The notes under the pieces are model-generated. The model saw nothing but the letters and a program-made list of their open reading frames with translations. It did not search any database and was not told the origin of the DNA. 64,000 bases of DNA from a virus (lineage: Duplodnaviria; Heunggongvirae; Uroviricota; Caudoviricetes), in the IMG/VR virus record IMGVR_UViG_3300025009_000056; one strand, given 5' to 3'. This document shows positions 24,813 to 45,930 of the stretch, in pieces; positions within the stretch are counted from its first letter, which is position 1; the number at the start of each line of letters is the position of its first letter. Made by a program: the position numbers and the translations under genes.

Positions 24813-25370
24813 TTAACGCAACAGGTTTACATTGGCTTTCAGCCACCGCCTTGCATAAAACTTCCACACAAGCCAGAAAATAAATCCTATTATTTCGATT
24901 ATTACAATCCACCCACAAGCCTTATAAAATTTAGGTATCACTTTCACGGTAACAAAGGTCTGCGCTTTCTGTTTCTGTTTTATCATACGCATGAATCGCG
25001 GAACAAGAACCTTGCGCTCCTTATAAACAACCTTTACTGAGTAATGACCATTCTCAAACTTTTCCTGCAACTCCAGCCATTGCCCCTTGTATTGTTCTTT
25101 TTCCCTTATTACAACCTTATTTGTACTATCGCAGTCGAAATAAGCCTCTAATAAAACACTGTCTCCAGAAATCACTAAAGTGTCGTAGCTCACCGTATCT
25201 ATAATCACCACCGTATCCGATGTTGTAACAGAGTCAATCTTCGCGTATCCACGCCGGACAGCTTTTTTGTCAAAAGCCTTATCACTAAGGATGGAGCACG
25301 AGCTGAATAATGATATTGCGATAAGCGTCAATATAATCAGCACTATTGCTATAAAACTCTTATTTTTCAT
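24813..25370 (-). CDS. lipoprotein with C-terminal TM (unimolecular-spanin-like)
   Basis: signal peptide with LFSSC lipobox; beta-rich middle; TM GWIVIIEIIGFIFWLVW; promoter box 25389-25396. Confidence 0.6.
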   Translation of the reverse strand: MKNKSFIAIVLIILTLIAISLFSSCSILSDKAFDKKAVRRGYAKIDSVTTSDTVVIIDTVSYDTLVISGDSVLLEAYFDCDSTNKVVIREKEQYKGQWLELQEKFENGHYSVKVVYKERKVLVPRFMRMIKQKQKAQTFVTVKVIPKFYKACGWIVIIEIIGFIFWLVWKFYARRWLKANVNLLR

Positions 25371-25430
25371 TCGTTTTTCTTTATCCTGCAAAGATAATAC
25401 AATTTCGTTAAAACGGGGGAGTGTGTCAAA

Positions 25431-25460
25431 ATAAAGGGGCGCGATAAATCGCACCCCCTT
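25431..25460 (-). terminator. intrinsic terminator
   Basis: GGGGGTGCGA/TCGCGCCCC stem then T-rich tail. Confidence 0.6.
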
Positions 25461-25519
25461 AAACCCAAAAACTAAAAACTAAAACTGAAAAAAGCCTGCT
25501 ACACGAGCAGTATTGTTAA

Positions 25520-25885
25520 TTATTTTAATTCTTTCAAAATCTGCTTAACATCTTGCCTTATCTCATTGATGCCATTTTTAGTCTCATCAATGTCTTTTTC
25601 TATCTCGCCAAGTTTATCATCCTGATAATCTTTGTATTCAATAAATTGCTCCTTAGTCACTGCCTCGGATTGCGTTTTCTCTATCCGCTTCACCGCCTCA
25701 AAACTATACTGAGCCTTATCACGTGTATCACGCTGTACAGCAAAACTAGACAAAACAAGTCCTGATAATATAGCAGCTATTATGCCACCTGTCCATTTCA
25801 CACCCTTAGATAGCGTGGTTGTATTACCAACGCATTCATCTGTTTTATCTGTACTTTCCTGATTTATTGACTTTTTATCCCGCAT
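25520..25885 (-). CDS. membrane-anchored coiled-coil protein (lysis-cassette associated)
   Basis: single TM then heptads. Confidence 0.6.
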   Translation of the reverse strand: MRDKKSINQESTDKTDECVGNTTTLSKGVKWTGGIIAAILSGLVLSSFAVQRDTRDKAQYSFEAVKRIEKTQSEAVTKEQFIEYKDYQDDKLGEIEKDIDETKNGINEIRQDVKQILKELK

Positions 25886-25977
25886 AATTCAATCCGTATA
25901 AAACACTAAAAATAATATAGCAAAGATAGCATATTTTATTAACAATGTCAAGACAAAATTTAATGATTATTTTGACA

Positions 25978-26403
25978 CTACTTGATTTCAGGAGTTGGGG
26001 TATCAACGACCTGTTGCTCAGGCTTTGTTTCGTCAATAGGATTAAACTTAACCTTGAATATTTTATCGAGCCAGTATGAAAGGCCAAAATATTCATTCAT
26101 AAACATAGCTATGAGAAACGAGAAAAAGACAGCACATCCGTAAACCATAACATCCGGCTTAAACCAAAAGAATCCACCGTTTACCTTGTAAAAAATACCA
26201 AAAATAATAGCGAGCGTAGCCGCTGTAATAAGAACCATCCACCTGTTTTTAATTTTCAGGTTCACGTTTTTAGCGACATTAGTATCGCCAAGAATTCGCA
26301 CTGCGGTGTACGCTGTCAGAATGGTGACGGTTACATAAACCCAGTCAACAATACCAAGAATTGTTGTCAATGCTGTTGCAAGATAATTCAAAATCTGTTC
26401 CAT
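25978..26403 (-). CDS. multi-TM holin-like protein
   Basis: 3-4 hydrophobic segments, charged C-tail, next to spanin-like gene. Confidence 0.45.
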   Translation of the reverse strand: MEQILNYLATALTTILGIVDWVYVTVTILTAYTAVRILGDTNVAKNVNLKIKNRWMVLITAATLAIIFGIFYKVNGGFFWFKPDVMVYGCAVFFSFLIAMFMNEYFGLSYWLDKIFKVKFNPIDETKPEQQVVDTPTPEIK

Positions 26404-26448: not shown

Positions 26449-27828
26449 TTATGGGATATAGGATAGACGAGAGCAAATATACCCAGCGGCATTTGTTGGC
26501 GAAAAAGTAGAACGAATAAAAATAAGTCCAGCAGAAGTGGTGTGAAGTGCAAGACCTCCAATAAGGATAGTTCTAAGAGAGGAGATTGTAGCACTATGTT
26601 CAAAATTGTCACACCAAAAAGTAGTTGCACTACCGCCAACTGTACCACCAACATTAGGGGTTATTTCACCGTAAGTCCCATCCAAATTGGTTTTAATATA
26701 TCCGTTAGCCCGTGCTATCAATCCTCTGTCCGAATACCCATTGTAATTTACATCATTGAATAATGCAGGGTCGTTCGTCACCCACATCCTACTGTAATCA
26801 CCATCGGCTACCGTTTTCACATCGACATTAACGCCATCTAAGTTTTTAAACACATGACCAAATGGCATTTCTATACCTCTGTATCTATTTACGGTGAATG
26901 AGCGTGGAACACCAGCACCACCAAAGTCGGTAACTGCAACGGAAACCTCGCCTGATTTAGTGGCAAGTGTGTTTGAAGCACCGCAGCTTATAAATGGATA
27001 ACGAGTATTAAAAGTATTCCATTCCGCATCAATAGCGGTAGTTACGCCGTCCCCCAATCCACCTTTCCTATACCCCTCTGTCGTAAATGTAGCATCGATA
27101 GCTTTTTGACTATTTCTTGTGGCGTATTCAACGACAAATAACCAAGTGATTGCCTTGTGTTGTTCGTATGTATTTATGTTCCATTTTGTGCCAGCGGCTC
27201 TATTTCTTGCGTAAGTACGGAAGTTGGTACGGGTTAATAATGTTGCAGGCTTTCCCAATAATGTATTTGCCGCAGCATCCCACGCAGCATTGTTATCGCC
27301 ACCTCTATAATCTGTCGTAGCGTTGACTACACTCGATAATTTTAACGTAGGTCGATATAAACTCGCCTCGTATGCCCCGATATAAAATGCGGGTACAGCA
27401 TGAAATCCAGAGATAGGGTATTGACTTATTTTGCAGCGGTAAGTATTGCCGGACGTTTCAAACTTTCGATAATGCAATGGAACATATATCATCACCTGAC
27501 CGTCTGTGCCGCTTAAATCCGATGCTGTGCCGTCAATCTTCTTTGACCAGTCGTTTTCGTTTAGCCAGTAATTAACTGTGCCATTGTCAAGTAACAAACA
27601 CGCTCTCATGCCGTTCTGAATAGGCAATGAAGCGTGGAGTTTCATATCGTCTACTGACGATGCTATACGGGTTACGTCCGGTGAGGTGGCGGTGATGTCG
27701 TATTCGATGCCGTACCAATGTTCACCGTAAGTGATTACTTTCCCGTTATATTTCAAAACCTCTTGACCAATACTTAAAAATGGCATCAGTAAAGCGAGCA
27801 ACAAAAACAATTTTTTCATCTTATTCAT
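26449..27828 (-). CDS. secreted C-type-lectin-fold (DGR-target family) spike/adhesin, copy A
   Basis: signal peptide ..SIG|Q; YIGAYEA, NRYRGIEMPFG, GG..AG..SRL C-terminus; ~90% identical to 31806..33152 except last 60 aa. Confidence 0.8.
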   Translation of the reverse strand: MNKMKKLFLLLALLMPFLSIGQEVLKYNGKVITYGEHWYGIEYDITATSPDVTRIASSVDDMKLHASLPIQNGMRACLLLDNGTVNYWLNENDWSKKIDGTASDLSGTDGQVMIYVPLHYRKFETSGNTYRCKISQYPISGFHAVPAFYIGAYEASLYRPTLKLSSVVNATTDYRGGDNNAAWDAAANTLLGKPATLLTRTNFRTYARNRAAGTKWNINTYEQHKAITWLFVVEYATRNSQKAIDATFTTEGYRKGGLGDGVTTAIDAEWNTFNTRYPFISCGASNTLATKSGEVSVAVTDFGGAGVPRSFTVNRYRGIEMPFGHVFKNLDGVNVDVKTVADGDYSRMWVTNDPALFNDVNYNGYSDRGLIARANGYIKTNLDGTYGEITPNVGGTVGGSATTFWCDNFEHSATISSLRTILIGGLALHTTSAGLIFIRSTFSPTNAAGYICSRLSYIP

Positions 27829-27862
27829 TTTTTCAATTTAAGTGCAAAGCTAATACTTTTTA

Positions 27863-28684
27863 TTATAATTTTGAATTAATTTTTTCAACACCAAAAAACG
27901 CTATCGGGTCGTAATAGTTTTTACAGACACTATCCCGAACCTCGAAGTGTAGATGACACGAATAGCAAGAACTGGCAGAACCAGTATTCCCCACGTTAGC
28001 AAACCACTCACCCTTACTTAATTTAGTTCCAACCTGTATTCCGGATGTCTGTGCAAGATGCATATACAGTGTGTAAAAAACATTCCCCTTGTAATCGTGT
28101 TTTACAATTACATAATGACCGGATGTGTTGTCAAATCCGATATAGGTTATTTCTCCATCATAAGCAGAAACCACATGCTGTTTTCCTATCAGATTATGGT
28201 CACTATTATAATCCAACCCCTGATGCAAGACATACTGCATTAAATTATTATCAGCATATACCGGATTCTGCATCTCTATTCCTTTCAGATATTCCGGAAT
28301 ATTCGTAAAATTAAACCATGCTTTAACACCCAGACTTCCGGTATTAAGTTTTAAAACCTCCCTGATTCTATACTGTCGTAATGGGTCATATCCATCGGCA
28401 ATATTTTTCATATTTTCATCATCAAAACGAGCGTTTACCACAATGCCCGTTTTCTTGTTTTTATACACAACCTGCCCTTTTCTCGTCGCCTGCGCTGTAG
28501 ATGGGAAACCTAATTCTTTCCATGTGGGTATATACCAATCTTCAGGACTGGTTAATATATCCATGTTGTAAACTCCATCGCGCGACTGAACTGTGTTTTC
28601 TTTTTCCTCTTCCATTACTTTTCGTTTTTCTATTACGGTTTTAAGTTCCGAAAAATCATTTACCACCACTGCTTTATTAGCCAT
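27863..28684 (-). CDS. M23 family peptidoglycan endopeptidase
   Basis: HQGLD, YMHL, GNTG...CHLHFEV; promoter box for next gene at 27845-27852. Confidence 0.88.
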   Translation of the reverse strand: MANKAVVVNDFSELKTVIEKRKVMEEEKENTVQSRDGVYNMDILTSPEDWYIPTWKELGFPSTAQATRKGQVVYKNKKTGIVVNARFDDENMKNIADGYDPLRQYRIREVLKLNTGSLGVKAWFNFTNIPEYLKGIEMQNPVYADNNLMQYVLHQGLDYNSDHNLIGKQHVVSAYDGEITYIGFDNTSGHYVIVKHDYKGNVFYTLYMHLAQTSGIQVGTKLSKGEWFANVGNTGSASSCYSCHLHFEVRDSVCKNYYDPIAFFGVEKINSKL

Positions 28685-29223
28685 TACTCACGAATTAAAA
28701 AACGGTCAAATTTGTCGTCGTTAAAAATATCAACAGGAGCAATCTTATTCCAATTGGGAAAATATTTATAGTCCAATTTATTATAGACATAAGCGCACCA
28801 CTCACCACAGATAAAGCGCTTATCACTCTTACTCTGCTTACGTCCTATCCATTTACCAAACATAAACCTTATTGGCTGGTAGAATAAAAGGTTCACAAAA
28901 TCATAAGGCACGTGACCGCATTTAGGAAGCATCACGGATGCAAGCCTGACAGGGTGTAGTTTGTCGTCTTTTATTTTTGGCGAACAATACATTAATCCAG
29001 CTTTACCGCTTATGTAATCCGAAAACTTAGTAAGCGATATTCCGCGCTTATCGGACTCGCATACAAAAAGCTCATCGTATAACCAAATGAAAACAGCGGC
29101 GTGATTCCACTTGTTTTTCTCAAAAAACTGAATAGCTCGCGCCAACCATTTTCTACCACTAACAAGCAAAATATCGCCCGTGTTGATTTCTGTAATATTG
29201 CACTGAATTGATTTATTTCTCAT
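28684..29223 (-). CDS. permuted papain-like (NlpC/P60, YiiX/YebB-like) amidase/acyltransferase
   Basis: GDILL, WNHAAV, YDF, FICGEW (His before Cys). Confidence 0.8.
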   Translation of the reverse strand: MRNKSIQCNITEINTGDILLVSGRKWLARAIQFFEKNKWNHAAVFIWLYDELFVCESDKRGISLTKFSDYISGKAGLMYCSPKIKDDKLHPVRLASVMLPKCGHVPYDFVNLLFYQPIRFMFGKWIGRKQSKSDKRFICGEWCAYVYNKLDYKYFPNWNKIAPVDIFNDDKFDRFLIRE

Positions 29224-29230
29224 ATTATTT

Positions 29231-30841
29231 TTATTGACTACTTGTATCCCAGTTCACATCCTGAATTATTACAACATCTCCTGAATTAGCACTTGTAACC
29301 CATATCTCAAAATAGTCCGCAGGAGCAACATTTGGAATATATGCTACGGTGGAAAAAGCAAACGGCTGGTTTGCTGTTGGTATCCTTGCCGACATTTGTC
29401 CATATTTGGTTGCAGCATTCCCGTTTTTCACGATACAAACATCTATCACTCTATTAATCTGATTAACCTGTATATTGCAGCAAACAACCATCCGTATATC
29501 TCTTTTGTTTACGGGTTGATATGTCATACTGTTATCAGCTATCGTAAACTTACAGGTGTAAAATGACGTATTTGTGAACGCTGCTTTATAAAAAGTACCG
29601 CCAGCCGAAATAGTTGTTCCGGTGACATTGTTTTGAACGCCTATTCCGGCGTGTGGAGATTTGCTTTCTATACCAGCATTATTATCGATATACGCATTAG
29701 CATCACGTCCATCAGCGCGGGTGAAATCGAAACCTTCAATAAAATATCCAGTATTATTCCACGTGCATCCAGTTATGTATATATGAGCAATATTGGTAAA
29801 TGTAGCCGGAGTATAAACGATTCCACTATCATTCACTGTGCCGTTCTGAAATTCACAACCACCATCAATAAGAATATAAGCCTTACTACCTTTCAATAAA
29901 TGAACGCCTTTATCGCAATTGATAAATGCTGTCGTCACCATCCTGAATCTAACGCTGTCGTTAGCTCCGGTAATTACTATCCCTGCGTCTTTAATATTGC
30001 GCATATCACCCTCTTGAATCCAAATTTCAGCCTGAGTGGAATCAATAATACCATTCCAAAAACCATCCATTGAAAAATCTTTCACTTCATTATAGGTGTC
30101 CTCGCCTAAGAAACGAATACAATCTTCTCCTGCGTGTGTTCCGTATGTGGCTAAAGCGGTCGCATCAAATGTTATCATCTTGAAATAACAATCGGTTTGG
30201 CATCGAAACATTGGTTTACCAAGCAATCCTGTTGCAGCGGAAATAGTTGTTTCCCCGTATGAAATCCCTTCAATCGTTAATGGATACGGCAAATTTACAT
30301 CAATAGTATTTGCAATTGTATAATTATTACCACCAAGACGAACAACGGACGGGTCTTTCATGTGTTCACCAAGAAAAACCATCACCTCTGCGATAGTGGT
30401 GAAAGAACCTGTTTCAGATACATCAAAAATATTATCAGTCCTGACATTTTTCTCTTTCACAATCCAATTAGTATCTTTGACAACGTAAGTTTTTCCAACC
30501 CATCTTGTTAATCGACTTGTATCCACTGCGTCAATCTTAATGCCCGAATAACCAGCAACGGAAACATAATCAGTATACGTTCCGACATTTTTTATCGTTA
30601 TAGTTAATCCATTGTCAGCAGCGGTAACATCGGGCAATGTCAGAATAATATCACCGCTTGCCTCTACAAAAGCATCTGTTTTCAATAGTGTGTCAGTCGC
30701 TGTTTTAATAACCGGAATTGTAATATTGCCAGAACTTGTCAATATTCCACTTGAGTTTATTTTTACCGTGTTATCATTCAGGTTTATCTGCCCCATCGCA
30801 AGGATTGGAAGCAGCATTATTATCATTATCAGTTTTTTCAT
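29231..30841 (-). CDS. secreted beta-helix-like spike protein
   Basis: signal peptide MKKLIMIIMLLPILAMG|Q (start moved to 30841); parallel-beta-helix-like repeats. Confidence 0.65.
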   Translation of the reverse strand: MKKLIMIIMLLPILAMGQINLNDNTVKINSSGILTSSGNITIPVIKTATDTLLKTDAFVEASGDIILTLPDVTAADNGLTITIKNVGTYTDYVSVAGYSGIKIDAVDTSRLTRWVGKTYVVKDTNWIVKEKNVRTDNIFDVSETGSFTTIAEVMVFLGEHMKDPSVVRLGGNNYTIANTIDVNLPYPLTIEGISYGETTISAATGLLGKPMFRCQTDCYFKMITFDATALATYGTHAGEDCIRFLGEDTYNEVKDFSMDGFWNGIIDSTQAEIWIQEGDMRNIKDAGIVITGANDSVRFRMVTTAFINCDKGVHLLKGSKAYILIDGGCEFQNGTVNDSGIVYTPATFTNIAHIYITGCTWNNTGYFIEGFDFTRADGRDANAYIDNNAGIESKSPHAGIGVQNNVTGTTISAGGTFYKAAFTNTSFYTCKFTIADNSMTYQPVNKRDIRMVVCCNIQVNQINRVIDVCIVKNGNAATKYGQMSARIPTANQPFAFSTVAYIPNVAPADYFEIWVTSANSGDVVIIQDVNWDTSSQ

Positions 30842-31461
30842 TAGTTCATTATTTGAATTACACCGCTCACGTTTATTAAAATGTTCCCAGCACTCTCCGT
30901 TCCCCATTGATAGGTAATGTCAAGTAGGTTGTCAACTGTTGTGTTTATACCCACCCCTATTGCGATAAAGGAACGCTGCGCTCCACCTACAAGCATGGTT
31001 GCTCCCATTACATTGCAAGTTCCGCTAACGCCAGTAGTTATTATCGTTATTTCAACTGTTATATCAGCTATTGTATTGGTGTGCGCTGCAAGTGTAGCGG
31101 TAGATGTGACAAGCGTTGAATCTCCGGCTTTTATCCTGATGATATTCGTCGGGTTTCCTGTTGATGTAAAGTCTGCCTTAGTGTTTATTCGGAATACTTT
31201 TCCAGCCGTAAGTAGTTCAGAAGGCATTGTTCTTGTTCCAATAGCGTTGGCATCATCGAAAAACGATGTTTCTACTAAGGTATTTGTGATTGTCTTTGAA
31301 GACATCTGCGTATACACATTGCGATTATCGTAAGTATTAGCACCATACTGCACTGCTACTGTATTGCCGCCTGTAATTTGAACACTGTTATTATTTAGAT
31401 TAAGTGTTTGACCTATCATTACAATAGGTATTATCATCAATATGAACGCAAGTGTTTTCAT
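30841..31461 (-). CDS. secreted beta-rich protein
   Basis: signal peptide ..VMIG|Q; mature N-terminus resembles that of 29231..30841. Confidence 0.7.
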   Translation of the reverse strand: MKTLAFILMIIPIVMIGQTLNLNNNSVQITGGNTVAVQYGANTYDNRNVYTQMSSKTITNTLVETSFFDDANAIGTRTMPSELLTAGKVFRINTKADFTSTGNPTNIIRIKAGDSTLVTSTATLAAHTNTIADITVEITIITTGVSGTCNVMGATMLVGGAQRSFIAIGVGINTTVDNLLDITYQWGTESAGNILINVSGVIQIMN

Positions 31462-31736
31462 ATAATTTCTTTTGGTGGATTATAACTAAACTCATTCCCT
31501 ACTATAGTCACGTTAAACATCTCCTCGCATTGTTCCTTTGTATAGATAGGCAATACGCAGCCATTGTCATAGTGGCAGCACGTTTCGTGGCAGTTATTGT
31601 CGCAGAATTGCTGATTAACAGGACACATCTTCTGGTCGCTTTCTGTTGCTCCGTATGCGACCTGATAGCCGCCTTCAACCTCTGTGAGTGTGGCAAAGTA
31701 GCTGATTTGTCCTGATGTTCCGATGTCTATTTTCAT
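31458..31736 (-). CDS. small Cys-rich protein
   Basis: CPVNQQFCDNNCHETCCHYDNGC. Confidence 0.65.
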   Translation of the reverse strand: MKIDIGTSGQISYFATLTEVEGGYQVAYGATESDQKMCPVNQQFCDNNCHETCCHYDNGCVLPIYTKEQCEEMFNVTIVGNEFSYNPPKEII

Positions 31737-31805
31737 ATTGTTTTATTTTTAAGTCACTCAATCTTCGGGCTGGGTGTTTCGTTTTCGTTCGCTCCGCTAA
31801 ATAAA

Positions 31806-33152
31806 CTAAGGAATAAAGCAAAGGCGAGAGCCAAAATTCGTATACATAAACGAAGGCGCGTTAATCGAGAAAACGAACACGAAGCCCGCATTCGTACTAG
31901 AACCCGCAGTACCGCCGACGAGGAGGGTACGAAGTGAACTTGAATTAATGTCTGTAAAAAAGTAATCTGTCCAATATATGTCGTAGTTACCACCAACAAT
32001 ACCACCAACATTAGGAACTATTTCACCATAAGTACCATCTAAATTGGTTTTAATGTATCCGTTAGCTCGTGCTATTAACCCTCTGTCCGAATAGCCAGTA
32101 TAATTAGCATCATTGAATAAAGCAGGATTATTCGTTACCCACATCCTCGAATAATCGCCTTGCGCAACCGTTTTTACATCTACGTTTACCCCATCCAAGT
32201 TCTTAAATATATGACCAAATGGCATCTCTATACCTCTGTACCTATTAGCAGCAAATGAGCGTGGAACACCAGCACCGCCAAAGTCTGTTACTGCTACACT
32301 AACTTCGCCTGATTTTGTGGCTAAAATATTTGAAGCACCGCAATTTATGAACGGATACAAACTATTGAAATTAGTCCATTCTGTACCATTAGCGGTTGTT
32401 ACGCCATTACCTAATCCACCTTTCCTATACCCCTCTGTCGTAAATGTAGCATCAACGGCTTTCTGACTATTACGAGTTGCATATTCAACTACAAATAACC
32501 AAGTTATTGTTTTGTGTTGCTCGTATGTGTTTATATTCCATTTTGTCCCAGCGGCTCTATTTCTTGCGTAGGTGCGGAAATTGGTACGGCTTAATTGAGT
32601 TGCAGGCTTACCCAATAAAGTATTAGCTTGTGCATCCCAAGCAGCATTATTATTACCACCTCTGTAATCAGTTGTGGCGTTTACTACTGAACTTAGTTTT
32701 AACGTTGGTCTGTAAACGCTTGCTTCGTATGCACCCAAATAAAACGCAGGGACTTCGTGGAAGCCAGCGATGGGGTATTGTGATATTTTGCAACGGTAAG
32801 TATTGCCCGAAGTTTCAAACTTTCGGTAGTGTAAGGGAACGTATATCATTACCTGACCGTCTATGCCTGATAAATCGGAAGCCGTGCCGTCTGCTTTTTT
32901 TGACCAGTCGTTTTCGTTTAGCCAGTAATTCACTGTTCCGTTATCGAGCAACAAACACGCTCTCATTCCATTCTGTATAGGTAATGAGGCGTGGAGTTTC
33001 ATGTCTCCCGTGCTTGATATTCTTGTTACGTCAGGTGATGTGGCCGTAATATCATATTCTATGCCGTACCACGCCTTACCGTAAGTAACAACCTTTTGTC
33101 CTACCAAGAAAAGAGGTAGTAACAGCGATATGAATAAAAGTATTTTTTTCAT
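31806..33152 (-). CDS. secreted DGR target protein (C-type lectin fold), copy B
   Basis: signal peptide ..LVG|Q; C-terminal GG.A...NAGF.....S..APS......GSRLCFIP. Confidence 0.85.
   Translation of the reverse strand: MKKILLFISLLLPLFLVGQKVVTYGKAWYGIEYDITATSPDVTRISSTGDMKLHASLPIQNGMRACLLLDNGTVNYWLNENDWSKKADGTASDLSGIDGQVMIYVPLHYRKFETSGNTYRCKISQYPIAGFHEVPAFYLGAYEASVYRPTLKLSSVVNATTDYRGGNNNAAWDAQANTLLGKPATQLSRTNFRTYARNRAAGTKWNINTYEQHKTITWLFVVEYATRNSQKAVDATFTTEGYRKGGLGNGVTTANGTEWTNFNSLYPFINCGASNILATKSGEVSVAVTDFGGAGVPRSFAANRYRGIEMPFGHIFKNLDGVNVDVKTVAQGDYSRMWVTNNPALFNDANYTGYSDRGLIARANGYIKTNLDGTYGEIVPNVGGIVGGNYDIYWTDYFFTDINSSSLRTLLVGGTAGSSTNAGFVFVFSINAPSFMYTNFGSRLCFIP
31809..31926 (-). other. DGR variable region (VR)
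   Basis: GC-richer segment with fixed NCG codons alternating with NNY codons, ending GGCTCTCGCCTTTGCTTT. Confidence 0.75.
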
Positions 33153-33169
33153 CTTTTAAGCCTTAGTTT

Positions 33170-36100
33170 TTAGTGCGTGTAAACATATTTTACAGTTCTC
33201 GAACCACCTAACTTATTTTCAATCGTAGTGTATGCACCACCATCGTAAATATTCAAATTACCATCAGTGCCGCCCGTTGTTGTCACATTAGCTGAGTTTT
33301 GAACCAATAGACCGATTGAACCATCAGCGTTTGTAATAACGGTTGCAAATTGGTCATATACACCTGAATTGTAAACAAAAACTCTTAATTCACCGTAAGC
33401 TCCGGCTCTCAAATTAATAATACCATCGTCGGCAACTACTAAGCTATCTGCATCGGGAGCTAAGTGATAAATATCAAAGAGTGCGTCTTCGAGTGAAACG
33501 CTGTCTGTAACTGTTAAATGCTCCATGAAAGTTGTGTCTGCTATGTAGGCGTTGCCTCTCACGCTCAAAGTCGTATCTGCCGTATATGGCAAAACAACTT
33601 TTCCGTTCAATTGTGTCAGCGTAATAGCTGTGTTCCCGATGTTCACACTGTTACTACCCAATCCGATAGCGTTATATCCGATAACAGTTTCGTTTTGGTC
33701 GTTGTCTGCCAAAGCTCTTGTGCCTGCACCGAGAAATAAACAGTAGTCAGAAGTGGTGTTTGCGGTTGCTCCATCAGTTATGTACATACCTGCCTGAAAT
33801 CCTTGCGCAGTATTAGTAAATCCGGTTGTGTTTTTATAGAGCGCACTCATTCCGCTTGCGGTATTACTGTGACCGGAAATATTGTCATTCATAGAAAACA
33901 TACCATTTGCAGTATTTTGATACCCGATTGTGTTACTTGTTAAAGACTGCACCCCATTAGCGGTATTATAATATCCCTCAGTATTAGCTGTTAATGCTGT
34001 TACACCTGTCGCAGTATTGTAATATCCGGTTGTGTTATTCAACAAAACACTATGCCCGATACCTGTATTGAAAGATGATTGGTTTGATGCGGTGGCAGTC
34101 GTTCCCATCGTTAAATTACCAGCATTTTCACCTAAAAACGTATTGTAACCATCAGTTGTCACCGCTCCATTGTTACCGTAATTAAAATTATGGATGAATG
34201 TTGCTGCATCTTTGTAGATAACACCATATTTAGTTGCGTTGGTAGTGTTCAATAAACTTATGTTTTGCTGCGGGAACATATCTCCATTGAAACGAGATGT
34301 ACCCCGCACACTAAGCATTGTGTCCGCTGGCGTTTGCATTATTACCTTTCCTATAAAAGTTGACGTGCTATCAGTCGGGTCAACAATCAATATTGCATCG
34401 GTTGTGCTTGAACTGTCGCCTATGTAGGTTTTGCCGTTTTTAAGGACACGGAAAGCATCATTCCTTGTTGTATCAGCCAATCCATTTCCTATTTGAAAGA
34501 GCGGGTCATATGAATACCAATCAGTATTATGTTCGTATTGCAGGGTGTCATTATACGCCCCACATACAAAACTTGACACCGCATCCGCCTTAACATCAAA
34601 TCCAAGCGCTTGTGAATAATATGATGTAGCTCTTGACTCCCAGCCACCCGCGATAGCCGCCCATCCAGATGCAGTTGTGTTATAACCTTCTGCATGCGAA
34701 TACTCCCCAGATGCAGTTGTGTTATAACCTTCTGCATGCGAATCCGTCCCAGCTGCAGTTGTGCTACTACCCTCTGCATGCGAATCCGTCCCAGCTGCAG
34801 TTGTGCTACTACCCTCTGCATGAGAATAATTCCCAGATGCAGTTGTGCTACCACCCTCTGCATGCGAATACGCCCCAGATGCAGTTGTGCTACCACCCTC
34901 TGCATGCGAATCCTCCCCAGATGCAGTTGTGTTATAACCTTCTGCATGAGAATAATTCCCAGATGCAGTTGTTAGACTACCCTCTGAGTGAGAATATAAA
35001 CCATTAGCTGTATTATATGCACCCTCTACATGGCAACCATACGAACCATTATATATTCTGTTTTGAATTCCCTCAATATGATTACCTGAACCAGATGTCA
35101 TTGAATCAAAAACAACAATATAATAATTCCAATTATCATATATATTTGTAATATCCTCATTTATAGTTAACACAGTGTTTGTTCCATTAAATGACGATGT
35201 GTTTATTGTCGCAATCATAAAATTAGAACCATCGTTATAATTCTCAGCATATATTGTTATCCCAGATGTAAAATTAGATGTTACATCCCCCTCGCTCGAC
35301 TCCAATATTATTTCAGCTGGTGAATTTGTAACAGTATTAATTAAAAATGCCTTAGCTCCAATAATATTTGATTTTCCGCTAACAAAATTACTTTCGCCAG
35401 TAACTATACAACTATCCCCATACGCAAATGAATTTCCAGACACAGTATTCACGCCTCCACCTGAAAAATTACCAATAAAAGTTGACGTGCTATCAGTCGG
35501 GTCAACAATCAATATTGCATCGGTTGTGCCAGAACTATCGCCTATGTATGTTTTACCGTTTTTCAAAACTCTAAAAGCATCGTTTTGAGTCCCCCAACCA
35601 GTTCCATTACCTATTTGAAACAAAGGGTCTGTTGTCACCCAACTCACCTTGCTTGCTGGTAATGTATCGTTATAATATCCAAAAGTAGCAGAGTTCCATG
35701 AATTACAAAAAGATGACCCAGCAGCAAAACCAAAAGAAGTATAATTTACCGCATCATTACAAGCAAATGAATTTTGCATACTTGAATTAAAGTTTTCAGC
35801 TATATTACAAACAAAACCATCCTCTTGATTATTTTGACCATCATTTAAAGCAGCACCTCTAAAACCAAATTGATGTCCTCCGTTTGCTGAAAATCCATAT
35901 TCTGCATTATTATCACTATTATTAAAAGCTGCTCCCCATTTAGCTAAAGAATATGAATTTAAACCATGTACAATACAAAAGTTAGAGTCTACAGGGCCTA
36001 ATGTCATTGCATCTCCAACCCTCAAGCTACCAAATATTCTATAGTTATCATACAAGCTATCACCAGTTGTTTTGACATAGCCAGTATCAGAGACGTTGGG

Positions 36101-37249
36101 AATCCAAGCTGTGTTTTGTTTTGTCCCATCATTAAAAACTATACTATCTTCAATAAATATATTATTGTTAAAACGAGACACACCATGTACACTTAGCGTT
36201 GTATCAGCCGCGTATGTCATTATTACTTTACCCGACCTAAAATTATGTTCTGTAACACTCGTGTTCCCATAAACATATTGATTGTCAGCGGTTGTGTATG
36301 CGCTTTCACCAATAGCCATTGTATTTACAGCATCGACTTTTTGAGAAGCATGGTAGCCAGCACTAAGTCCGATAAATATATTATTTGTTGTAGGACTTGT
36401 TAAGCTACGTCCAGCATTAACACCAAGTAATGTATTCCCATTTGTATTTGCAGTCATACCATTACCAGCGTTTGTACCTATACCGACATTATCTGAACCC
36501 GTCGTCATATTTTGTAATGCACCGCCACCCATAGCTACGTTATAACTACCTGTGACTTTATATAAGGCAAAATCACCAACGGCTGTGTTTGAGTTACCTA
36601 CGACATTTAGGTTTAAGGAGTTAACCCCTATTGCAATATTAGAACTTCCTGACGAGTTCTTGTATAAAGCTGTACGACCAATAGCGATATTATTATTCCC
36701 CGTTATATTGCTATTAAGTGTTGCTGTCCCAATCGCAGTATTTAACCGTCCCGTTGTATTAACAATAAAAGAATAAGCACCCACTATGGTATTTCCGTCA
36801 CCAGTTGTCGTAGCTTGCATTGCTCGATAACCTATTGCAGTATTTTCATTACCAGTTGTAATAGCGTTTAACGCCGTATTACCAAGTGCTGTATTTGTTA
36901 AAATATTACTATTACCTTTACCAATGCGCAAACTGTTAATATATGAATCATAGGTGGCATTAAACATACCTCTTACCGATAGCATCGTATCATTCGGGCT
37001 TGACAAAATCAGTTTATTGTAAATCATGGTAGAACTATCCGCTTTCACGAAATCCATGAAGCGTTTATTACCGCTGTACCGAAGTTGGAATTTATCAACA
37101 CGCCAACCCATTTTGAATGTGTCAGTGCCATTCTGAAAATAGTTGTCGTATGTACCCGAAACAACACGCAATCTGCCGTAAATAGGCGACTGAGAAAAAC
37201 TAACATACGCTGCCAACGACAACGCTAAAAATAATAATATCCGTTTCAT
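33170..37249 (-). CDS. large secreted fibre/adhesin with YadA-like head repeats
   Basis: signal peptide ..VSFS|Q (start 37249); NTAxG..AL..NTTG repeats; SHAEG..TTASG repeats. Confidence 0.85.
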   Translation of the reverse strand: MKRILLFLALSLAAYVSFSQSPIYGRLRVVSGTYDNYFQNGTDTFKMGWRVDKFQLRYSGNKRFMDFVKADSSTMIYNKLILSSPNDTMLSVRGMFNATYDSYINSLRIGKGNSNILTNTALGNTALNAITTGNENTAIGYRAMQATTTGDGNTIVGAYSFIVNTTGRLNTAIGTATLNSNITGNNNIAIGRTALYKNSSGSSNIAIGVNSLNLNVVGNSNTAVGDFALYKVTGSYNVAMGGGALQNMTTGSDNVGIGTNAGNGMTANTNGNTLLGVNAGRSLTSPTTNNIFIGLSAGYHASQKVDAVNTMAIGESAYTTADNQYVYGNTSVTEHNFRSGKVIMTYAADTTLSVHGVSRFNNNIFIEDSIVFNDGTKQNTAWIPNVSDTGYVKTTGDSLYDNYRIFGSLRVGDAMTLGPVDSNFCIVHGLNSYSLAKWGAAFNNSDNNAEYGFSANGGHQFGFRGAALNDGQNNQEDGFVCNIAENFNSSMQNSFACNDAVNYTSFGFAAGSSFCNSWNSATFGYYNDTLPASKVSWVTTDPLFQIGNGTGWGTQNDAFRVLKNGKTYIGDSSGTTDAILIVDPTDSTSTFIGNFSGGGVNTVSGNSFAYGDSCIVTGESNFVSGKSNIIGAKAFLINTVTNSPAEIILESSEGDVTSNFTSGITIYAENYNDGSNFMIATINTSSFNGTNTVLTINEDITNIYDNWNYYIVVFDSMTSGSGNHIEGIQNRIYNGSYGCHVEGAYNTANGLYSHSEGSLTTASGNYSHAEGYNTTASGEDSHAEGGSTTASGAYSHAEGGSTTASGNYSHAEGSSTTAAGTDSHAEGSSTTAAGTDSHAEGYNTTASGEYSHAEGYNTTASGWAAIAGGWESRATSYYSQALGFDVKADAVSSFVCGAYNDTLQYEHNTDWYSYDPLFQIGNGLADTTRNDAFRVLKNGKTYIGDSSSTTDAILIVDPTDSTSTFIGKVIMQTPADTMLSVRGTSRFNGDMFPQQNISLLNTTNATKYGVIYKDAATFIHNFNYGNNGAVTTDGYNTFLGENAGNLTMGTTATASNQSSFNTGIGHSVLLNNTTGYYNTATGVTALTANTEGYYNTANGVQSLTSNTIGYQNTANGMFSMNDNISGHSNTASGMSALYKNTTGFTNTAQGFQAGMYITDGATANTTSDYCLFLGAGTRALADNDQNETVIGYNAIGLGSNSVNIGNTAITLTQLNGKVVLPYTADTTLSVRGNAYIADTTFMEHLTVTDSVSLEDALFDIYHLAPDADSLVVADDGIINLRAGAYGELRVFVYNSGVYDQFATVITNADGSIGLLVQNSANVTTTGGTDGNLNIYDGGAYTTIENKLGGSRTVKYVYTH
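34353..34507 (-). repeat. intragenic module duplicated at 35475-35629
   Basis: 55 bp identical core; DPLFQIGNG...NDAFRVLKNGKTYIGDSS.TTDAILIVDPTDSTSTFIG twice. Confidence 0.85.
34665..35000 (-). repeat. 8 x 42-bp coding tandem repeat
   Basis: period 42 nt encoding SHAEGxxTTASGxx. Confidence 0.92.
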
Positions 37250-38123: not shown

Positions 38124-38783
38124 TTAGGCTCGATTTCGGTGTGTGTTGAAATAAATAATTGCACCCACTATTCCGGCAGAGATTAACAGTATCGGAATAG
38201 CTATCCTTAACACAGTTTCACCACTGAATGCCATAGACGAAATACGCCTTAACCACCCATCTTCGAAAGCTGCATTATCCAGACTATCATACCATTCGTA
38301 TTGAGCCTGTTTAATCGTTTCAAATATTTTCTTTTGGTCTTTGTATTCATTTATCGCCTTAACCTCAGATGAGCGCATTACGCTATCAATAGTAAGCCCC
38401 TTTACAAAACCACTGATTGCCTTTTTTGAAAGTTTTATACCGGAAGCCGGACGACCCCAATACCATTGCAAAATCACGTTTGCAACGGACTGGTTTTCTA
38501 TTTCGTCACCTCTGATAGTATCCCAAAACAGCTTTTTGCCAATTTTTTTTGCATCACTTTCAGTTAACGCCTTCAGTCTTGCAATTGCTTTTGACTGACT
38601 CATTGCCGTTAATTGCTCTCCGGTTGTTACACGCAAATATTGTTCGTATGTAATTGCGGCAATACCATGATTGGTTCCGATAAGCCTGCCAGCACTATCG
38701 TAATTACCAGAATCATTAGGCATGGCTTGATAGCCACCCTCCCATTTCATTAACCAATCTGTTATCGCACTCCAACTTGCCAT
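38124..38783 (-). CDS. GH108-like lysozyme with C-terminal TM anchor
   Basis: WEGGY..MPNDSG..GTNHGI; IAIPILLISAGIVGAIIYF. Confidence 0.8.
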   Translation of the reverse strand: MASWSAITDWLMKWEGGYQAMPNDSGNYDSAGRLIGTNHGIAAITYEQYLRVTTGEQLTAMSQSKAIARLKALTESDAKKIGKKLFWDTIRGDEIENQSVANVILQWYWGRPASGIKLSKKAISGFVKGLTIDSVMRSSEVKAINEYKDQKKIFETIKQAQYEWYDSLDNAAFEDGWLRRISSMAFSGETVLRIAIPILLISAGIVGAIIYFNTHRNRA

Positions 38784-38785
38784 AA

Positions 38786-39370
38786 TTATTTTATATTTAT
38801 AAAACCAAGAAGTTTAAAACCCTCGGTTTCAACAACGTTATTAAAAATCAACTTTCTTGTAGCCTTACTTACTTTTCCGGAATAATTACCCTCCTGCGTG
38901 TCAAAAGTTTTTTCATATACCTTTGTTACGACTCCAGCGTGTCCGGCTGACGGATTATTTGGATACTGCCAAATGACAATACTCCCCTTTTTTGGCTTGT
39001 TCGACAGTTCAAAATATCCGGATTTATCTTTTGAAAATGCCACCCATGAAGTCTGGCTGTTTACACTCAAAAGATTTTTAGCCACATCCCATTTTTTCTT
39101 AGGCAATATTTTCGACCAGATATATTTCGAATACAATACGCACCACGACCAACCAGTTCTCCAGCCTAAATCTTTTAACTCCTGTTGAAATTTGGGGTCG
39201 GAAAAAGAAACGTTATCGCCACCAACCTCATATATTCCAAGTGTATCCTCTAGTTCAGACGCAAGTGAGCCTATACCACGTGTACGCTTTAATAAAAAAT
39301 ATAAAAGTGCGCCACCGGATACAACACCAGCGGCGATAAAAACCTCTTTATATTTCTGAAAGATACTCAT
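38786..39370 (-). CDS. CHAP amidase with N-terminal TM anchor
   Basis: WSWCVLY, GSIVIW, GHAGVV, TQEGN. Confidence 0.82.
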   Translation of the reverse strand: MSIFQKYKEVFIAAGVVSGGALLYFLLKRTRGIGSLASELEDTLGIYEVGGDNVSFSDPKFQQELKDLGWRTGWSWCVLYSKYIWSKILPKKKWDVAKNLLSVNSQTSWVAFSKDKSGYFELSNKPKKGSIVIWQYPNNPSAGHAGVVTKVYEKTFDTQEGNYSGKVSKATRKLIFNNVVETEGFKLLGFINIK

Positions 39371-39374
39371 GTTG

Positions 39375-39764
39375 TTATGGTTTTAATCCTCCAATTTGTC
39401 CTCCAGTCGGGACAGGTGGGTCTAGCGTTATATATTTTTGCTCACCACAGGCATTGTAGTTAGTCTGACACATTTTCATCACATAATCAATAGTCCCATC
39501 CGCATTTAATACGGTTACATTTTTAAGATACCCCTTTTGCAACCAATATCCCACATTGTACATACCGCCATCTATCATCTGAGAATCATACATTTTATTT
39601 TCACAATTGCATTTCGCATTTGCAATTGATTGATTAGATACGGCGTTTAAAAAAAGCTCAGGGTTTGAATTTGTTTTCTTTCTCCTACCAAACACAATCC
39701 ACGCAACTACCCCGACTGCGACAATTGGCAATATATATTTTTCGATATTTTTCTCTATCAACAT
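39375..39764 (-). CDS. membrane-anchored protein, FLNA motif
   Basis: N-terminal TM; Cys-containing domain. Confidence 0.7.
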   Translation of the reverse strand: MLIEKNIEKYILPIVAVGVVAWIVFGRRKKTNSNPELFLNAVSNQSIANAKCNCENKMYDSQMIDGGMYNVGYWLQKGYLKNVTVLNADGTIDYVMKMCQTNYNACGEQKYITLDPPVPTGGQIGGLKP

Positions 39765-39773
39765 GTTTTTAAT

Positions 39774-40208
39774 TTATTTCGTAAAAAAGTATATAGCAAT
39801 AACAACAGCCACCCCGCCAATAATCCAGCCTGTATAATTGGTTTTTGTTTTTTCGACAACCACCTCTTCTACAACATCCGCACCCTGCGTTAAAGATGCA
39901 ACAGCACTCGTTTGATGCTGCATTCCGGTAATAAGAGTTTTTTTAAACTTTACTATCGAGCTGTTATTAGCAGGAATATCAATATATGGAATTCCTTGCA
40001 CCTCATTTGGGCAATCTTTATCCGGAGTTGTTCTGACATATTTATTTAAACCATTCCGGATGTTATTCCCCATAATAACATCACCTTTTTTAAATATCAT
40101 GCTATTGGTTAAACTACCCTCTTTATAATAAGCAGTGTAATCGGTTTGAAAAACCGCAGTCACGCAAGGTGAGTATGTTATAGCCGCATGATTAAAAATA
40201 TCGCCCAT
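39774..40208 (-). CDS. C-terminally anchored protein, paralog of 40212..40649
   Basis: FNHA start; A.F..DYTA...GD...G pattern; TM. Confidence 0.7.
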   Translation of the reverse strand: MGDIFNHAAITYSPCVTAVFQTDYTAYYKEGSLTNSMIFKKGDVIMGNNIRNGLNKYVRTTPDKDCPNEVQGIPYIDIPANNSSIVKFKKTLITGMQHQTSAVASLTQGADVVEEVVVEKTKTNYTGWIIGGVAVVIAIYFFTK

Positions 40209-40211
40209 GAT

Positions 40212-40649
40212 TTATTTTTTTAAAATTTTAAAACCAAGAAAGATAGCAATTGCACCGACAACCCACGTTACAGGATTACTCAGCCAGTTTTTAGAACTCG
40301 TTCCATCTTTCTTTATCTCCTGCACATTTCTCATTTCTTGATTAGGTATATGCTCCATCGTGGCTGTGGCTGTGGAATCCAACTGAGAAACACTGACAAT
40401 TGATTCATCATCTGCTGGAATCTGAATAGTTATACCGGATGGGTCTGGGAATACTCCACTCCTTGATGTGGTGAAATATTTTTTCGATTCAATATCTGAT
40501 ATTTTACCAGAAACCATATCTCCCGTATTCCATGAGCCGCTAAATTCTTTACCATCTTTATCTGTGAATGTAGCAGTATAATCAGCTACAAATTTAGCCC
40601 GAGCTGTTATTGGCATTTTGCCGTTTGCGTTATTAAAAAAGTCGTTCAT
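40212..40649 (-). CDS. C-terminally anchored protein, FNNA motif
   Basis: paralog of previous gene. Confidence 0.7.
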   Translation of the reverse strand: MNDFFNNANGKMPITARAKFVADYTATFTDKDGKEFSGSWNTGDMVSGKISDIESKKYFTTSRSGVFPDPSGITIQIPADDESIVSVSQLDSTATATMEHIPNQEMRNVQEIKKDGTSSKNWLSNPVTWVVGAIAIFLGFKILKK

Positions 40650-40661
40650 AATTATTTATTT

Positions 40662-41177
40662 TTAACCGATTAACTCTAACATTTTATACTTGTCATTGAA
40701 TGGAAGTGGAATAGAAATATTCGCTACGCCCACCTTAACCCACATAGTGCCCTTGTATTCCACATCGAGATTTTTTAAATCATTATAGTTCGACGCAAGC
40801 ACACCGAGCATTGGGTTTATTAAGGTAATAGGAGTACTGAAAGAAAGAGTCTGTTTTGTCTTTTCGTTTGGCTTAATAAAAACATTTTCGCGCGATGTTA
40901 TCCACGCCGCTTTTTCACCACCTATATAAACCCACAGTTTTAATTTTGTCATCTCCACGTCGAGATTTCCACGATTATCAATAATAAAGTCGAATGAGCC
41001 GTTCAAACTCTTTGAGCCACCGAATAAAACAGCCCAAAAGTTAATAGACAGATTGTCATACTCGAAATATGTTTTATCATACTCCTTCAGTAATTTATTA
41101 ACTTTGCTGTAAGCCCAAATTCCAGCTGCGGCAAGAGCCGCAACCACCACACTCCATATAATTACACGCTTATTCAT
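40662..41177 (-). CDS. LEA_2/WHy-like domain protein with N-terminal TM
   Basis: IDNRGNLDVEMTKL..VYIGG..IKPNE.. Confidence 0.65.
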   Translation of the reverse strand: MNKRVIIWSVVVAALAAAGIWAYSKVNKLLKEYDKTYFEYDNLSINFWAVLFGGSKSLNGSFDFIIDNRGNLDVEMTKLKLWVYIGGEKAAWITSRENVFIKPNEKTKQTLSFSTPITLINPMLGVLASNYNDLKNLDVEYKGTMWVKVGVANISIPLPFNDKYKMLELIG

Positions 41178-41794: not shown

Positions 41795-41798
41795 ATTT

Positions 41799-42038
41799 TT
41801 ATTTATTTTGTGGATTTACTAGAAAACCTTTCATGAAGCTCGGCTTTGCAATCATTAAAACGGCAAGAGTAAGCAGCGTTGCACCTATCACTATTCCGAA
41901 ATAAAACGATGGCTGTAGTCTATAAACGTTTTCAACAGCTCTATATTTAGCAACAGGGTCAAGACTCTCATCCTGAATAATCGTCTCCACCTTGCTTAGT
42001 GCGACCTCTGCTCTTTGTATTTTCTTTTCGTCGTTCAT
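41799..42038 (-). CDS. membrane protein
   Basis: one TM. Confidence 0.65.
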   Translation of the reverse strand: MNDEKKIQRAEVALSKVETIIQDESLDPVAKYRAVENVYRLQPSFYFGIVIGATLLTLAVLMIAKPSFMKGFLVNPQNK

Positions 42039-42048
42039 TATTGCAAAT

Positions 42049-42411: not shown

Positions 42412-42415
42412 AATA

Positions 42416-42988: not shown

Positions 42989-43003
42989 ATGTTGATTCTC
43001 CTA

Positions 43004-43435: not shown

Positions 43436-43438
43436 ATT

Positions 43439-43771: not shown

Positions 43772-43783
43772 GTTATATATTTT

Positions 43784-43975: not shown

Positions 43976-43978
43976 TTC

Positions 43979-44910: not shown

Positions 44911-44940
44911 TCTTTCAGATTAACTCTTTTTAATAATTGA

Positions 44941-45051: not shown

Positions 45052-45070
45052 GATTTTATTTTTTAAATTA

Positions 45071-45262: not shown

Positions 45263-45296
45263 TTTTGCTGATTTTTAATTGTTGTCTTTTTATTTT

Positions 45297-45925: not shown

Positions 45926-45930
45926 AATTA

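Follow-up and report, generated by a model that had tools for sequence, protein, structure and literature searches.

The analysed window is a 64,000-nucleotide stretch of the ∼195 kb genome of a Bacteroidota phage from groundwater. Between positions 26449 and 37249, translation of five minus-strand open reading frames (A, P2, P3, B and P5; Table 1) reveals an N-terminal leader that ends immediately before a Gln. Leaders were called with our own rule-based criteria (n-region charge, h-region and small residues in the c-region). N-terminal hydrophobic segments were flagged in 15 of the 112 non-overlapping window ORFs, and a cleavage site followed by Gln was present in only these five; in the other 10, the hydrophobic run extends beyond the putative site, as in a membrane anchor, or the segment matches a lipoprotein signal. 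All five leaders pass the rule-based scan for the n-, h- and c-regions of Sec/SPase I signal peptides. Their n-regions carry one to three Lys/Arg residues, and their cores are uncharged and rich in Leu, Ile and Phe. The −1 residue is Gly in four cases and Ser in one, Pro occupies −6 in four of five, and the −3 residues are Ser, Ala, Met, Leu and Ser, two of which are atypical.

Table 1. Leader-bearing genes and neighbouring features in the window (all coordinates are window positions)
Feature	Position	Strand	Description
P5	33170..37249	−	1359-aa fibre; 19-aa leader 37193-37249, Ser at −1, Gln at +1
B	31806..33152	−	448-aa lectin-type receptor-binding protein, paralog of A; 18-aa leader 33099-33152, Gly at −1, Gln at +1
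92-aa ORF	31458..31736	−	Cys-rich, leaderless; kept beside B-type gene in other phages
P3	30841..31461	−	206-aa short fibre; 17-aa leader 31411-31461; adaptor module a; C-terminal jelly-roll tip
P2	29231..30841	−	536-aa tailspike-type right-handed beta-helix with TNF-like tip; 17-aa leader 30791-30841; adaptor module a
Two wall hydrolases	27863..29223	−	Leaderless, between fibre genes (Pfam, PHROGs)
Peptidase_M23	27863-28684	−	Wall hydrolase, no leader
C92 permuted papain amidase	28684-29223	−	Wall hydrolase, no leader
A	26449..27828	−	459-aa paralog of B; leader 27766-27828 from first Met, Gly at −1, Gln at +1
Lysis-like cassette	24813..26403	−	Directly downstream of A (topology scan only)
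141-aa protein	25978-26403	−	Three TM segments; no family match (Pfam, PHROGs)
121-aa protein	25520-25885	−	One TM segment at residue 31
185-aa protein	24813-25370	−	Lipoprotein-like

Gln at +1, the Q-rule, is specific to substrates of Bacteroidota signal peptidase I (SPI) (Bochtler et al. 2018, PMC5837995; PMC10653852). The published substrates have the same leader design, with a pyroglutamate cap expected, but are cellular, whereas the present five are phage fibre-like proteins. Porphyromonas gingivalis prophages also encode Q-rule proteins, the function of which is unknown (PMC10367356). No T9SS C-terminal domain (PF18962, TIGR04183 or type B) was found in the five proteins with Pfam and NCBIfam, while a bacterial positive control (L029:9672-11090) matched TIGR04183 (E = 4e-7). 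The five also have no lipobox, and because the +1 residue is Gln rather than Cys, none is a lipoprotein. The mature proteins carry no other membrane anchor, the sole match in the transmembrane scan being at residue 420 of mature A, in its hydrophobic C-terminal tip. The initial annotation had described Sec leaders ending before Gln on all five genes, of the Bacteroidota SPI type, together with the lack of a T9SS signal; translation and the rule-based scan, the leader design, and the two family searches with their control agree with it on each count.

Families, folds and adaptor modules

By family or fold, each of the five proteins resembles a fibre or spike, and matches to PHROGs, the PDB and Foldseek targets uphold their first designation as spike/fibre genes. 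Behind its leader, P5 comprises an N-terminal adaptor (module b), YadA/Hep_Hag-type head repeats and tandem 14-aa repeats, the last being 42 nt at the DNA level. It matches tail spike and virion structural PHROGs and the BpaC head (PDB ID: 7o23, E = 1e-11), and its best match in a cultured phage is to the tail spikes of Flavobacterium phage immuto, which are leaderless. A and B have direct repeats in common and diverge at their C-terminal tips. Both match the 'tail protein' family phrog_5302 (A, E = 5e-98; B, E = 2e-96, across profile positions 153–544 only); a PDB sequence search with B returned no match. The crAss-type DGR-target proteins of this family (cr55_1 gp058, Bacteroides phage Versailles) resemble A and B in their ∼420-aa body and lectin-type tip, at 27–42% identity, but differ at the N-terminus, which is either a ∼150-aa domain or short and non-hydrophobic, and is leaderless. 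Homologues of the phrog_5302 type adjoin reverse transcriptase (RVT_1) genes; among the window ORFs scanned, none near A or B was recognised as a reverse transcriptase.

The AF2 model of P3 (pLDDT 89.5) has a leader helix (residues 2–16), a low-confidence stretch (17–22) and a jelly roll (73–204), for which the Foldseek matches are lectin-like jelly rolls. P3 has 923 relatives, and its tip domain is found at the C-termini of hundreds of fibre-like proteins. For P2 (pLDDT 90.1), phage tailspike depolymerases lead the Foldseek matches at E = 1e-7, with a low global TM of 0.24–0.34, and the tip matches Bdellovibrio Bd2734 with a TM of 0.67 by target length. The PDB sequence search with the P2 profile found no match.

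The leader-plus-adaptor segments are common to otherwise unrelated bodies. That of P3 matches P2 (module a, E = 3e-6), the first 29 residues of P2 being 52% identical to P3, and that of P5 matches the protein P0127 (module b, E = 5e-10). Such docking ends, common to different bodies, are characteristic of phage receptor-binding proteins. A cellular parallel is provided by the MAT fibres of Bdellovibrio (Caulton et al. 2024, PMC10769870), which likewise have a signal peptide, a conserved N-terminal module, a phage-tail-fibre-like trimer and a swappable tip. Those fibres sit on the surface of the predator, whereas the present genes belong to a phage and have short phage-specific modules in place of the cellular-type N-domain.

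Start sites and leaders among homologues

The leaders lie within both the ENA and the JGI gene calls. Neighbouring genes overlap, the P3 start with the stop of the 92-aa ORF upstream and the P2 start (the MKKLIM Met within ORF 29231-30907) with the P3 stop, and homologues at 41–83% identity have leaders that differ in sequence and agree in design. The initial annotation had allowed that the true starts might lie downstream; these gene calls, overlaps and homologues back the leader starts instead. We consider it very improbable that the leaders are unused for export, being either mis-set starts or hydrophobic helices within a cytoplasmic fibre assembly. Consistent with that idea, leaderless homologues start at or near the predicted mature N-terminus, and residue 15 of the A leader is itself a Met. 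It is opposed by B, P2, P3 and P5, which have no ATG between leader and conserved core (the further Met codons of P2 and P5 are within the leader), by the retention of leader design and Gln at +1 across the homologues, and by the AF2 models of P3 and P2, in which the leader forms a helix set apart from the rest, with a linker of low confidence behind it. To our knowledge, Gln at +1 has no role beyond SPI processing, which also speaks against it.

Inspection of the N-termini of 120 homologues showed the leader retained, with a diverged sequence, in the B relatives P0006-8 and P0016; it is also kept in the P2 relatives P0124 and P0155 and the P3 relatives P0363, P0364, P0367 and P0370. Gln is at +1 throughout the leader-bearing homologues. 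This survey bears out the expectation that related viruses keep the leaders, although other close homologues of A/B and P3 are leaderless, so export is no inherent property of these families. An exact-pattern search of viral contigs gave no match. The leader block recurs in L013 and L096, both contigs of related phages, and homologues of the 92-aa ORF are found at L013:11403-11678 and L015:8913-9170. A tailed crAss-like phage, with terminase, portal and head protein, carries a ∼80% identical leader-bearing lectin gene beside a leader-bearing YadA-repeat fibre and the 92-aa ORF; with the block present in such a phage, the leaders are not tied to an unusual virion type.

The closest known parallel is offered by phi10:1, a cultured Cellulophaga siphovirus (NC_021802, Assiduviridae, 54 kb), in which gp091-gp095 are consecutive late proteins of fibre/depolymerase type with Bacteroidota leaders and Gln. 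Each of gp091-gp094 bears the same kind of leader, and the GenBank record annotates these four, each from MS/MS proteomics, as structural, virion structural, pectate lyase and tail fibre. We saw no sequence similarity between the phi10:1 proteins and the five window proteins, and the record is silent on leaders. The premise that tailed-phage fibres are made without signal peptides, on which the initial annotation relied, is contradicted at the sequence level by this phage. Small TM proteins and wall hydrolases (a GH108 endolysin in phi10:1) are encoded downstream of the leader-bearing block in the window, L013, L096 and phi10:1; the block abuts them directly in all except L013, where two small ORFs intervene. 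Detection of the phi10:1 proteins by mass spectrometry could reflect co-purifying secreted proteins.

P2 has a different background. It has no relatives in 50,697 phage records (tblastn), and most of the close relatives listed are cellular genes of Bacteroidota; ∼100 of the top 120 have a leader, and they lie in a conserved non-phage operon beside a T9SS cargo. The cellular proteins consist of a leader, a ∼90-aa N-terminal domain (precomputed PF26696) and a conserved ∼480-aa body. P2 has the leader and a body that is 47–54% identical, with many invariant columns, and a short module in place of the ∼90-aa domain. Judged by sequence, P2 probably belongs to this cellular secreted family and not to a known phage fibre family.

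Probable export and a proposed route to the particle

The assembly of tailed phages is taught as purely cytoplasmic, and literature searches returned no description of signal peptides on Bacteroidota phage fibres. With genuine, conserved leaders on fibre- and spike-like proteins, export from the cytoplasm is the most economical reading, and it is likely for all five proteins. Nobody has explained how exported fibres would reach the particle. The explanation that we prefer, with confidence a little short of even, places maturation in the periplasm and has the proteins dock onto particles once the inner membrane is opened by the adjacent lysis genes. The host-recognition proteins would be made as Sec preproteins, translocated across the inner membrane of the Bacteroidota host and cut by signal peptidase I before Gln, from which the host's glutaminyl cyclase should then form pyroglutamate. 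Folding and trimerisation would follow in the periplasm, and the proteins would meet particles only once the directly downstream lysis genes breach the inner membrane, whereupon the short conserved adaptor modules behind the leader would serve for docking. What the analysis shows is that the proteins have conserved leaders, resemble fibres and are encoded next to lysis-type genes; we infer export, cleavage and late docking.

That leader-bearing proteins can still be virion parts gains support, by analogy, from the MS/MS-based annotation of phi10:1. The cellular relatives of P2 and its absence of phage relatives count against late docking, as do the leaderless homologues of A/B and P3. A rival explanation, which we regard as plausible though doubtful, is that the proteins are exported and never become virion parts; they would act in trans, on the infected cell's own envelope, perhaps by masking or destroying receptors or by adhesion. 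Possible roles include superinfection exclusion, keeping progeny off debris, and adhesion of the kind mediated by cellular secreted fibre proteins. The largely cellular, leader-bearing kinship of P2 fits such a role, as do 34 of the best 120 relatives of P5, which are leader-bearing and either 'tail fiber domain-containing' or adhesin-like, and the recurrence of the B-type gene and its neighbours at ∼80% identity in two otherwise unrelated phages. There are precedents in the P. gingivalis prophage proteins, the periplasmic DGR-diversified proteins of Bacteroides (bioRxiv 10.1101/2024.11.15.621889) and the MAT fibres. It would, however, leave the phage without visible receptor-binding proteins, since every one of the five fibre-like genes has a leader and scaffold positions 3.3-123 kb of the ∼195 kb genome showed no leaderless one. 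The phage versions of P2 have also exchanged the cellular N-terminal domain for phage-specific adaptor modules, and the phi10:1 analogues are annotated as virion proteins. Display on the host cell, one of the two fates first proposed, lacks a visible route across the outer membrane, because the proteins have no T9SS domain, lipobox or barrel.

The other proposed fate was export to the periplasm followed by addition to particles there. Export stands as likely, and a virion role is favoured through the phi10:1 annotation, whereas assembly at or through the inner membrane is not supported. In its strongest form, that proposal would make this a tailless, membrane-containing virus in which the leaders bring spikes to a lipid-bearing particle or hold them there, which we judge improbable. 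In its favour, a topology scan found ∼29 small single-pass membrane proteins in 38-54 kb, and an ATPase has weak matches to Zot (E = 3e-4) and Pox_A32 (E = 0.011), with no relatives in IMG/VR or in phage records. A 543-aa ORF was likewise unmatched in phage records. No terminase, portal or capsid family was recognised across scaffold positions 3.3-123 kb; from the window to the left end of the scaffold, the genes are confined to small early-type ones, glycosyltransferases and radical SAM genes, and no head or tail genes were met. Yet the leaders end in cleavage-type sites on proteins with no other anchor, and the topology implies that, in a particle with an internal membrane assembled in the cytoplasm, exported domains would face the lumen. 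PRD1-like membrane-containing viruses have a double jelly-roll capsid protein and an FtsK/A32-type packaging ATPase; no jelly-roll capsid protein is demonstrated here (there is a 435-aa candidate), and the tailed crAss-like phage and the siphovirus phi10:1 carry related and analogous leaders, respectively. A tailless, membrane-containing virion is not needed to account for the leaders. Filamentous-phage g3p/g8p and PRD1-type membrane virion proteins similarly cross or enter the inner membrane before assembly, but for these phages assembly at or from the membrane follows established routes, while the closest analogues here are tailed phages.

Implications of a possible periplasmic maturation

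Extending late docking beyond this locus, we suggest, more tentatively again, that many Bacteroidota phages, this one included, may build their host-recognition apparatus outside the cytoplasm, with periplasmic proteins (pyroglutamate-capped and possibly glycosylated) joining otherwise finished particles only during lysis; here this is perhaps coupled to an unusually membrane-rich morphogenesis module. Such a two-compartment route would be undescribed for double-stranded DNA phages, and the question is directly testable in cultured Cellulophaga baltica with phi10:1. If Bacteroidota phage fibres do mature in the periplasm, receptor-binding proteins would be annotated differently, because late genes with a leader are often set aside as morons. 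The Q-rule leader would become a marker for host prediction, pointing to a Bacteroidota host, and lysis timing would become an assembly step. A periplasmic pool would be diluted at lysis, a point against late docking.

The production of recombinant depolymerases and fibres would also need rethinking, because an oxidising compartment, a capped N-terminus or glycosylation may be required. The Bacteroidota O-glycosylation sequon D[ST][AILVMT] shows no general enrichment across the five proteins. It is absent from A and B and occurs as often as expected in P2 and P3, and P5 has 15 copies against 6.1 expected (reached in 2 of 2000 shuffles), in part through its internal repeats.

Signal peptides and gene starts

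The N-termini of the five fibre- and spike-like open reading frames (A, P2, P3, B and P5) share one design in translation. Each begins with one to three Lys or Arg residues, followed by an uncharged stretch rich in Leu, Ile and Phe; residue -1 is small (Gly in four, Ser in P5), Gln is at +1 in all five, and Pro lies at -6 in four of the leaders. An explicit rule set applied to all 112 non-overlapping ORFs of the window flagged 15 N-terminal hydrophobic segments, and only A, P2, P3, B and P5 offered a cleavage site followed by Gln. The hydrophobic stretch of the remaining ten extends beyond the site, as in a membrane anchor, or matches a lipoprotein signal. The leaders preceding Gln that the initial annotation had proposed are therefore real, and they are specific to these five window genes. 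We found no description of signal peptides on Bacteroidota phage fibres in the literature, to which the window adds leaders on five of five fibre-like genes.

Coordinates of the leader-bearing genes and neighbouring cassette, with leader counts from a rule-based classifier
Feature	Position	Strand	Length	Leader-bearing homologues	Remark
A	26449-27828	(-)	459 aa		
P2	29231-30841	(-)	536 aa	100 of best 120	
P3	30841-31461	(-)	206 aa	25 of best 150	
B	31806-33152	(-)	448 aa	9 of best 120	
P5	33170-37249	(-)	1359 aa	34 of best 120	
Candidate lysis cassette	24813-26403				three small ORFs directly downstream of A; topology only

The suggestion that the true starts might lie downstream was not borne out. 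Independent ENA and JGI gene calls take in the leaders, the start codons of P3 and P2 sit on the stop codon of the gene before, no ATG occurs from leader to conserved core in B, P2, P3 and P5, and homologues have leaders of differing sequence and the same design. Extra Met codons lie inside the leaders of P2 and P5, and one ENA call starts P2 at such a Met. Both predicted models, of P2 and of P3, show the leader as a separate helix, with a linker of low confidence after it.

Gln at +1 has no known role outside signal peptidase I processing in Bacteroidota (PMC5837995, PMC10653852). Because of the leader design, this Gln and the conservation of the leaders, Sec export of the five proteins is very probable. 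That the leaders are not used is highly improbable, and less likely than either docking of exported proteins onto particles or action in trans on the envelope, the readings weighed below.

Families and folds of the five proteins

A and B are paralogs that match phrog_5302 'tail protein' (E 1e-96 to 1e-98, covering only profile positions 153-544 of 548). Among phages, the best relatives are crAss-like 'tail proteins' and Bacteroides phage Versailles; a reverse transcriptase adjoins several of these, which are therefore probable DGR variable proteins. Whereas the phrog_5302-type phage relatives lack a leader and start either with a domain of ~150 aa or with a short polar N-terminus, A and B carry one. 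A 92-aa Cys-rich ORF (window 31458-31736) accompanies the B-type gene here and in two further phages (L013:11403-11678; L015:8913-9170), and in L015 it comes behind the reverse transcriptase and a 99-aa ORF. Given this company and position, it may be a conserved, unnamed part of the DGR cassette.

The P2 model (pLDDT 90) comprises a right-handed beta-helix and a C-terminal TNF-like lectin domain. Its best PDB matches are phage tailspike depolymerases, with a low global TM (0.24-0.34) for the predicted model, and its modelled TNF-like domain matches the tip of a Bdellovibrio MAT fibre at a TM of 0.67 by target length. P2 had no match among 50,697 phage records; the close relatives listed are mostly ~590-aa cellular proteins (Chitinophagaceae, Niastella, Ohtaekwangia, Bacteroidales and others), encoded in a conserved non-phage operon with an adjoining T9SS cargo protein. 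The cellular proteins have an additional N-terminal domain after the leader, whereas P2 and its two nearest relatives have a short module instead. A further addition of the window is thus that one of the five, P2, appears to stem from a cellular secreted family. This kinship favours the main rival to the reading we prefer, namely action of the proteins in trans on the envelope, with no part in the virion. Published cases of Bacteroidota periplasmic proteins with a link to phages or DGRs (PMC10367356; bioRxiv 10.1101/2024.11.15.621889) point the same way, and we consider this rival possible.

The cellular block encodes a ~190-aa protein, a ~230-aa secreted protein, the ~590-aa secreted beta-helix protein and a ~470-aa T9SS cargo (L029:6255-11090, L040, L074 and L091). 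All four genes are present in Niastella and Ohtaekwangia, with only the beta-helix and ~470-aa proteins seen in Parachryseolinea; the block may be a cell-surface fibre system.

P3 is modelled (pLDDT 89.5) as a jelly-roll tip on a short stalk of beta-strands, and this tip is C-terminal in most listed relatives (923 relatives in all), which are ~100 to ~1280 aa long. Head repeats of the YadA/Hep_Hag type occur in P5 (PDB 7o23, E 1e-11), which matches tail-spike and virion-structural PHROGs, as well as tail spikes of cultured phages. Judged by families and folds, including predicted models, the earlier label of spike/fibre genes is fair for all five.

The interior of P5 (window 34581-35080) holds tandem 42-nt units encoding 14-aa YadA-head-type repeats, whose copy number varies from one assembly of this phage to another. 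The resulting P5 lengths of 1275 aa (P0243), 1359 aa (the window) and 1401 aa (L003) differ by multiples of 14 aa, which may be natural fibre-length variation or assembly collapse. P5 contains 15 copies of the Bacteroidota O-glycosylation sequon D[ST][AILVMT] against 6.1 +/- 2.3 expected (2 of 2000 shuffles), several of them falling in a recurring DT[TM]LSV motif; the same count showed no enrichment in A, P2, P3 or B.

Leader turnover and N-terminal modules

The proposed survey of homologues for leaders gave a divided answer: leaders recur among the best matches to B, P5, P3 and P2, and are absent from other homologues of B and P3 that are similarly close. Among the best 120 matches to B, the leader is limited to the nearest lineage, with A, P0006-8 (~80% identity) and P0016 (58%), while P0010-P0013, 74-80% identical to B, have a short polar peptide right before the conserved core instead. 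For P3, the nearest full-length-match relatives P0363, P0364, P0367 and P0370 have leaders, and the similarly close P0365, P0366, P0372, P0374 and P0377 have none; P0374 and P0377 open with a Met right before the residue equal to +1 of P3. Sequence comparison thus shows the leader to be an add-on: proteins complete in other respects have acquired or lost it, and selection maintains it in those that have it.

Modules next to the leader are also shared between unrelated bodies. P3 and P2 share 52% identity over their first 29 residues and are unrelated beyond them; the P5 N-terminus recurs in P0127, which has a P2-type body (E 5e-10), and the related phage contig L096 carries this module on two proteins, one collagen-like and the other P2-type. 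An N-terminal end common to unrelated bodies usually marks the docking ends of receptor-binding proteins in phages, and by analogy the leader-adjacent modules may be such ends.

Lysis-type neighbours and a proposed route to the particle

The three small ORFs 3' of A encode a three-TM, a one-TM and a lipoprotein-like protein, and a leaderless M23 peptidase and C92 amidase lie between P2 and A. By topology only, the small TM ORFs and wall hydrolases look like a lysis cassette. The three-TM protein is holin-like and the other two are a possible spanin pair; no ORF tested in this cassette had a family match.

This layout recurs in three other places. L013/L014 has a YadA-type fibre with a leader and a likewise leader-bearing B-type protein (80% identical to B). 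Next come the conserved 92-aa ORF, a 151-aa ORF and a small ORF with a leader, and then two TM proteins and an M15 peptidase. A terminase (phrog_6681, E 3e-52), a portal (phrog_6547, E 6e-54) and a head protein of crAss type lie further on; L013/L014 is a tailed phage. The window's third addition is that a closely related leader-bearing lectin gene (~80% identity), with its leader-bearing YadA-repeat neighbour and 92-aa ORF, appears in an unrelated tailed phage as well. L096 has four leader-bearing proteins, then holin-like ORFs. In the cultured siphovirus Cellulophaga phage phi10:1, gp091-gp095 each carry a leader, then Gln, and genes for TM proteins and a GH108 endolysin come next. Its record lists gp091-gp094 as structural, virion structural, pectate lyase and tail fibre, 'based on experimental MS/MS proteomics analysis', the only experimental hint, by analogy, that leader-bearing proteins reach virions.

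Fibres of T4 and tailspikes of P22 can attach spontaneously to finished particles in lysates. We tentatively prefer a reading in which the exported fibre proteins would mature in the periplasm and would dock onto particles after the neighbouring lysis genes have opened the inner membrane.

The window's scaffold is ~195 kb, with three independent assemblies of 194,286, 195,376 and 195,945 bp; the left ends of the first two lie no more than a few hundred bases apart. Between 3.3 and 123 kb the scaffold has no recognised terminase, portal or capsid family, and an ATPase (54247-55104) has weak Zot and A32 matches only. The stretch at 38-54 kb (window 38124-54049) is filled by about 29 small membrane proteins, each with one TM segment at its N- or C-terminus. 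Since tailed phages carry such leaders too, a tailless, membrane-containing virion is not needed to explain them; membrane-anchored spikes on a lipid-containing virion are unlikely, and less likely than periplasmic maturation with docking or action in trans.

The run of small membrane proteins also holds a GH108 and a CHAP enzyme, and L096 has a like run, with an LEA_2 protein, upstream of its fibre genes. An IS605 OrfB/TnpB-type transposase (window 7082-8239; phrog_506, E 4e-111) lies within the early region, and a similar element adjoins the terminase in L015.
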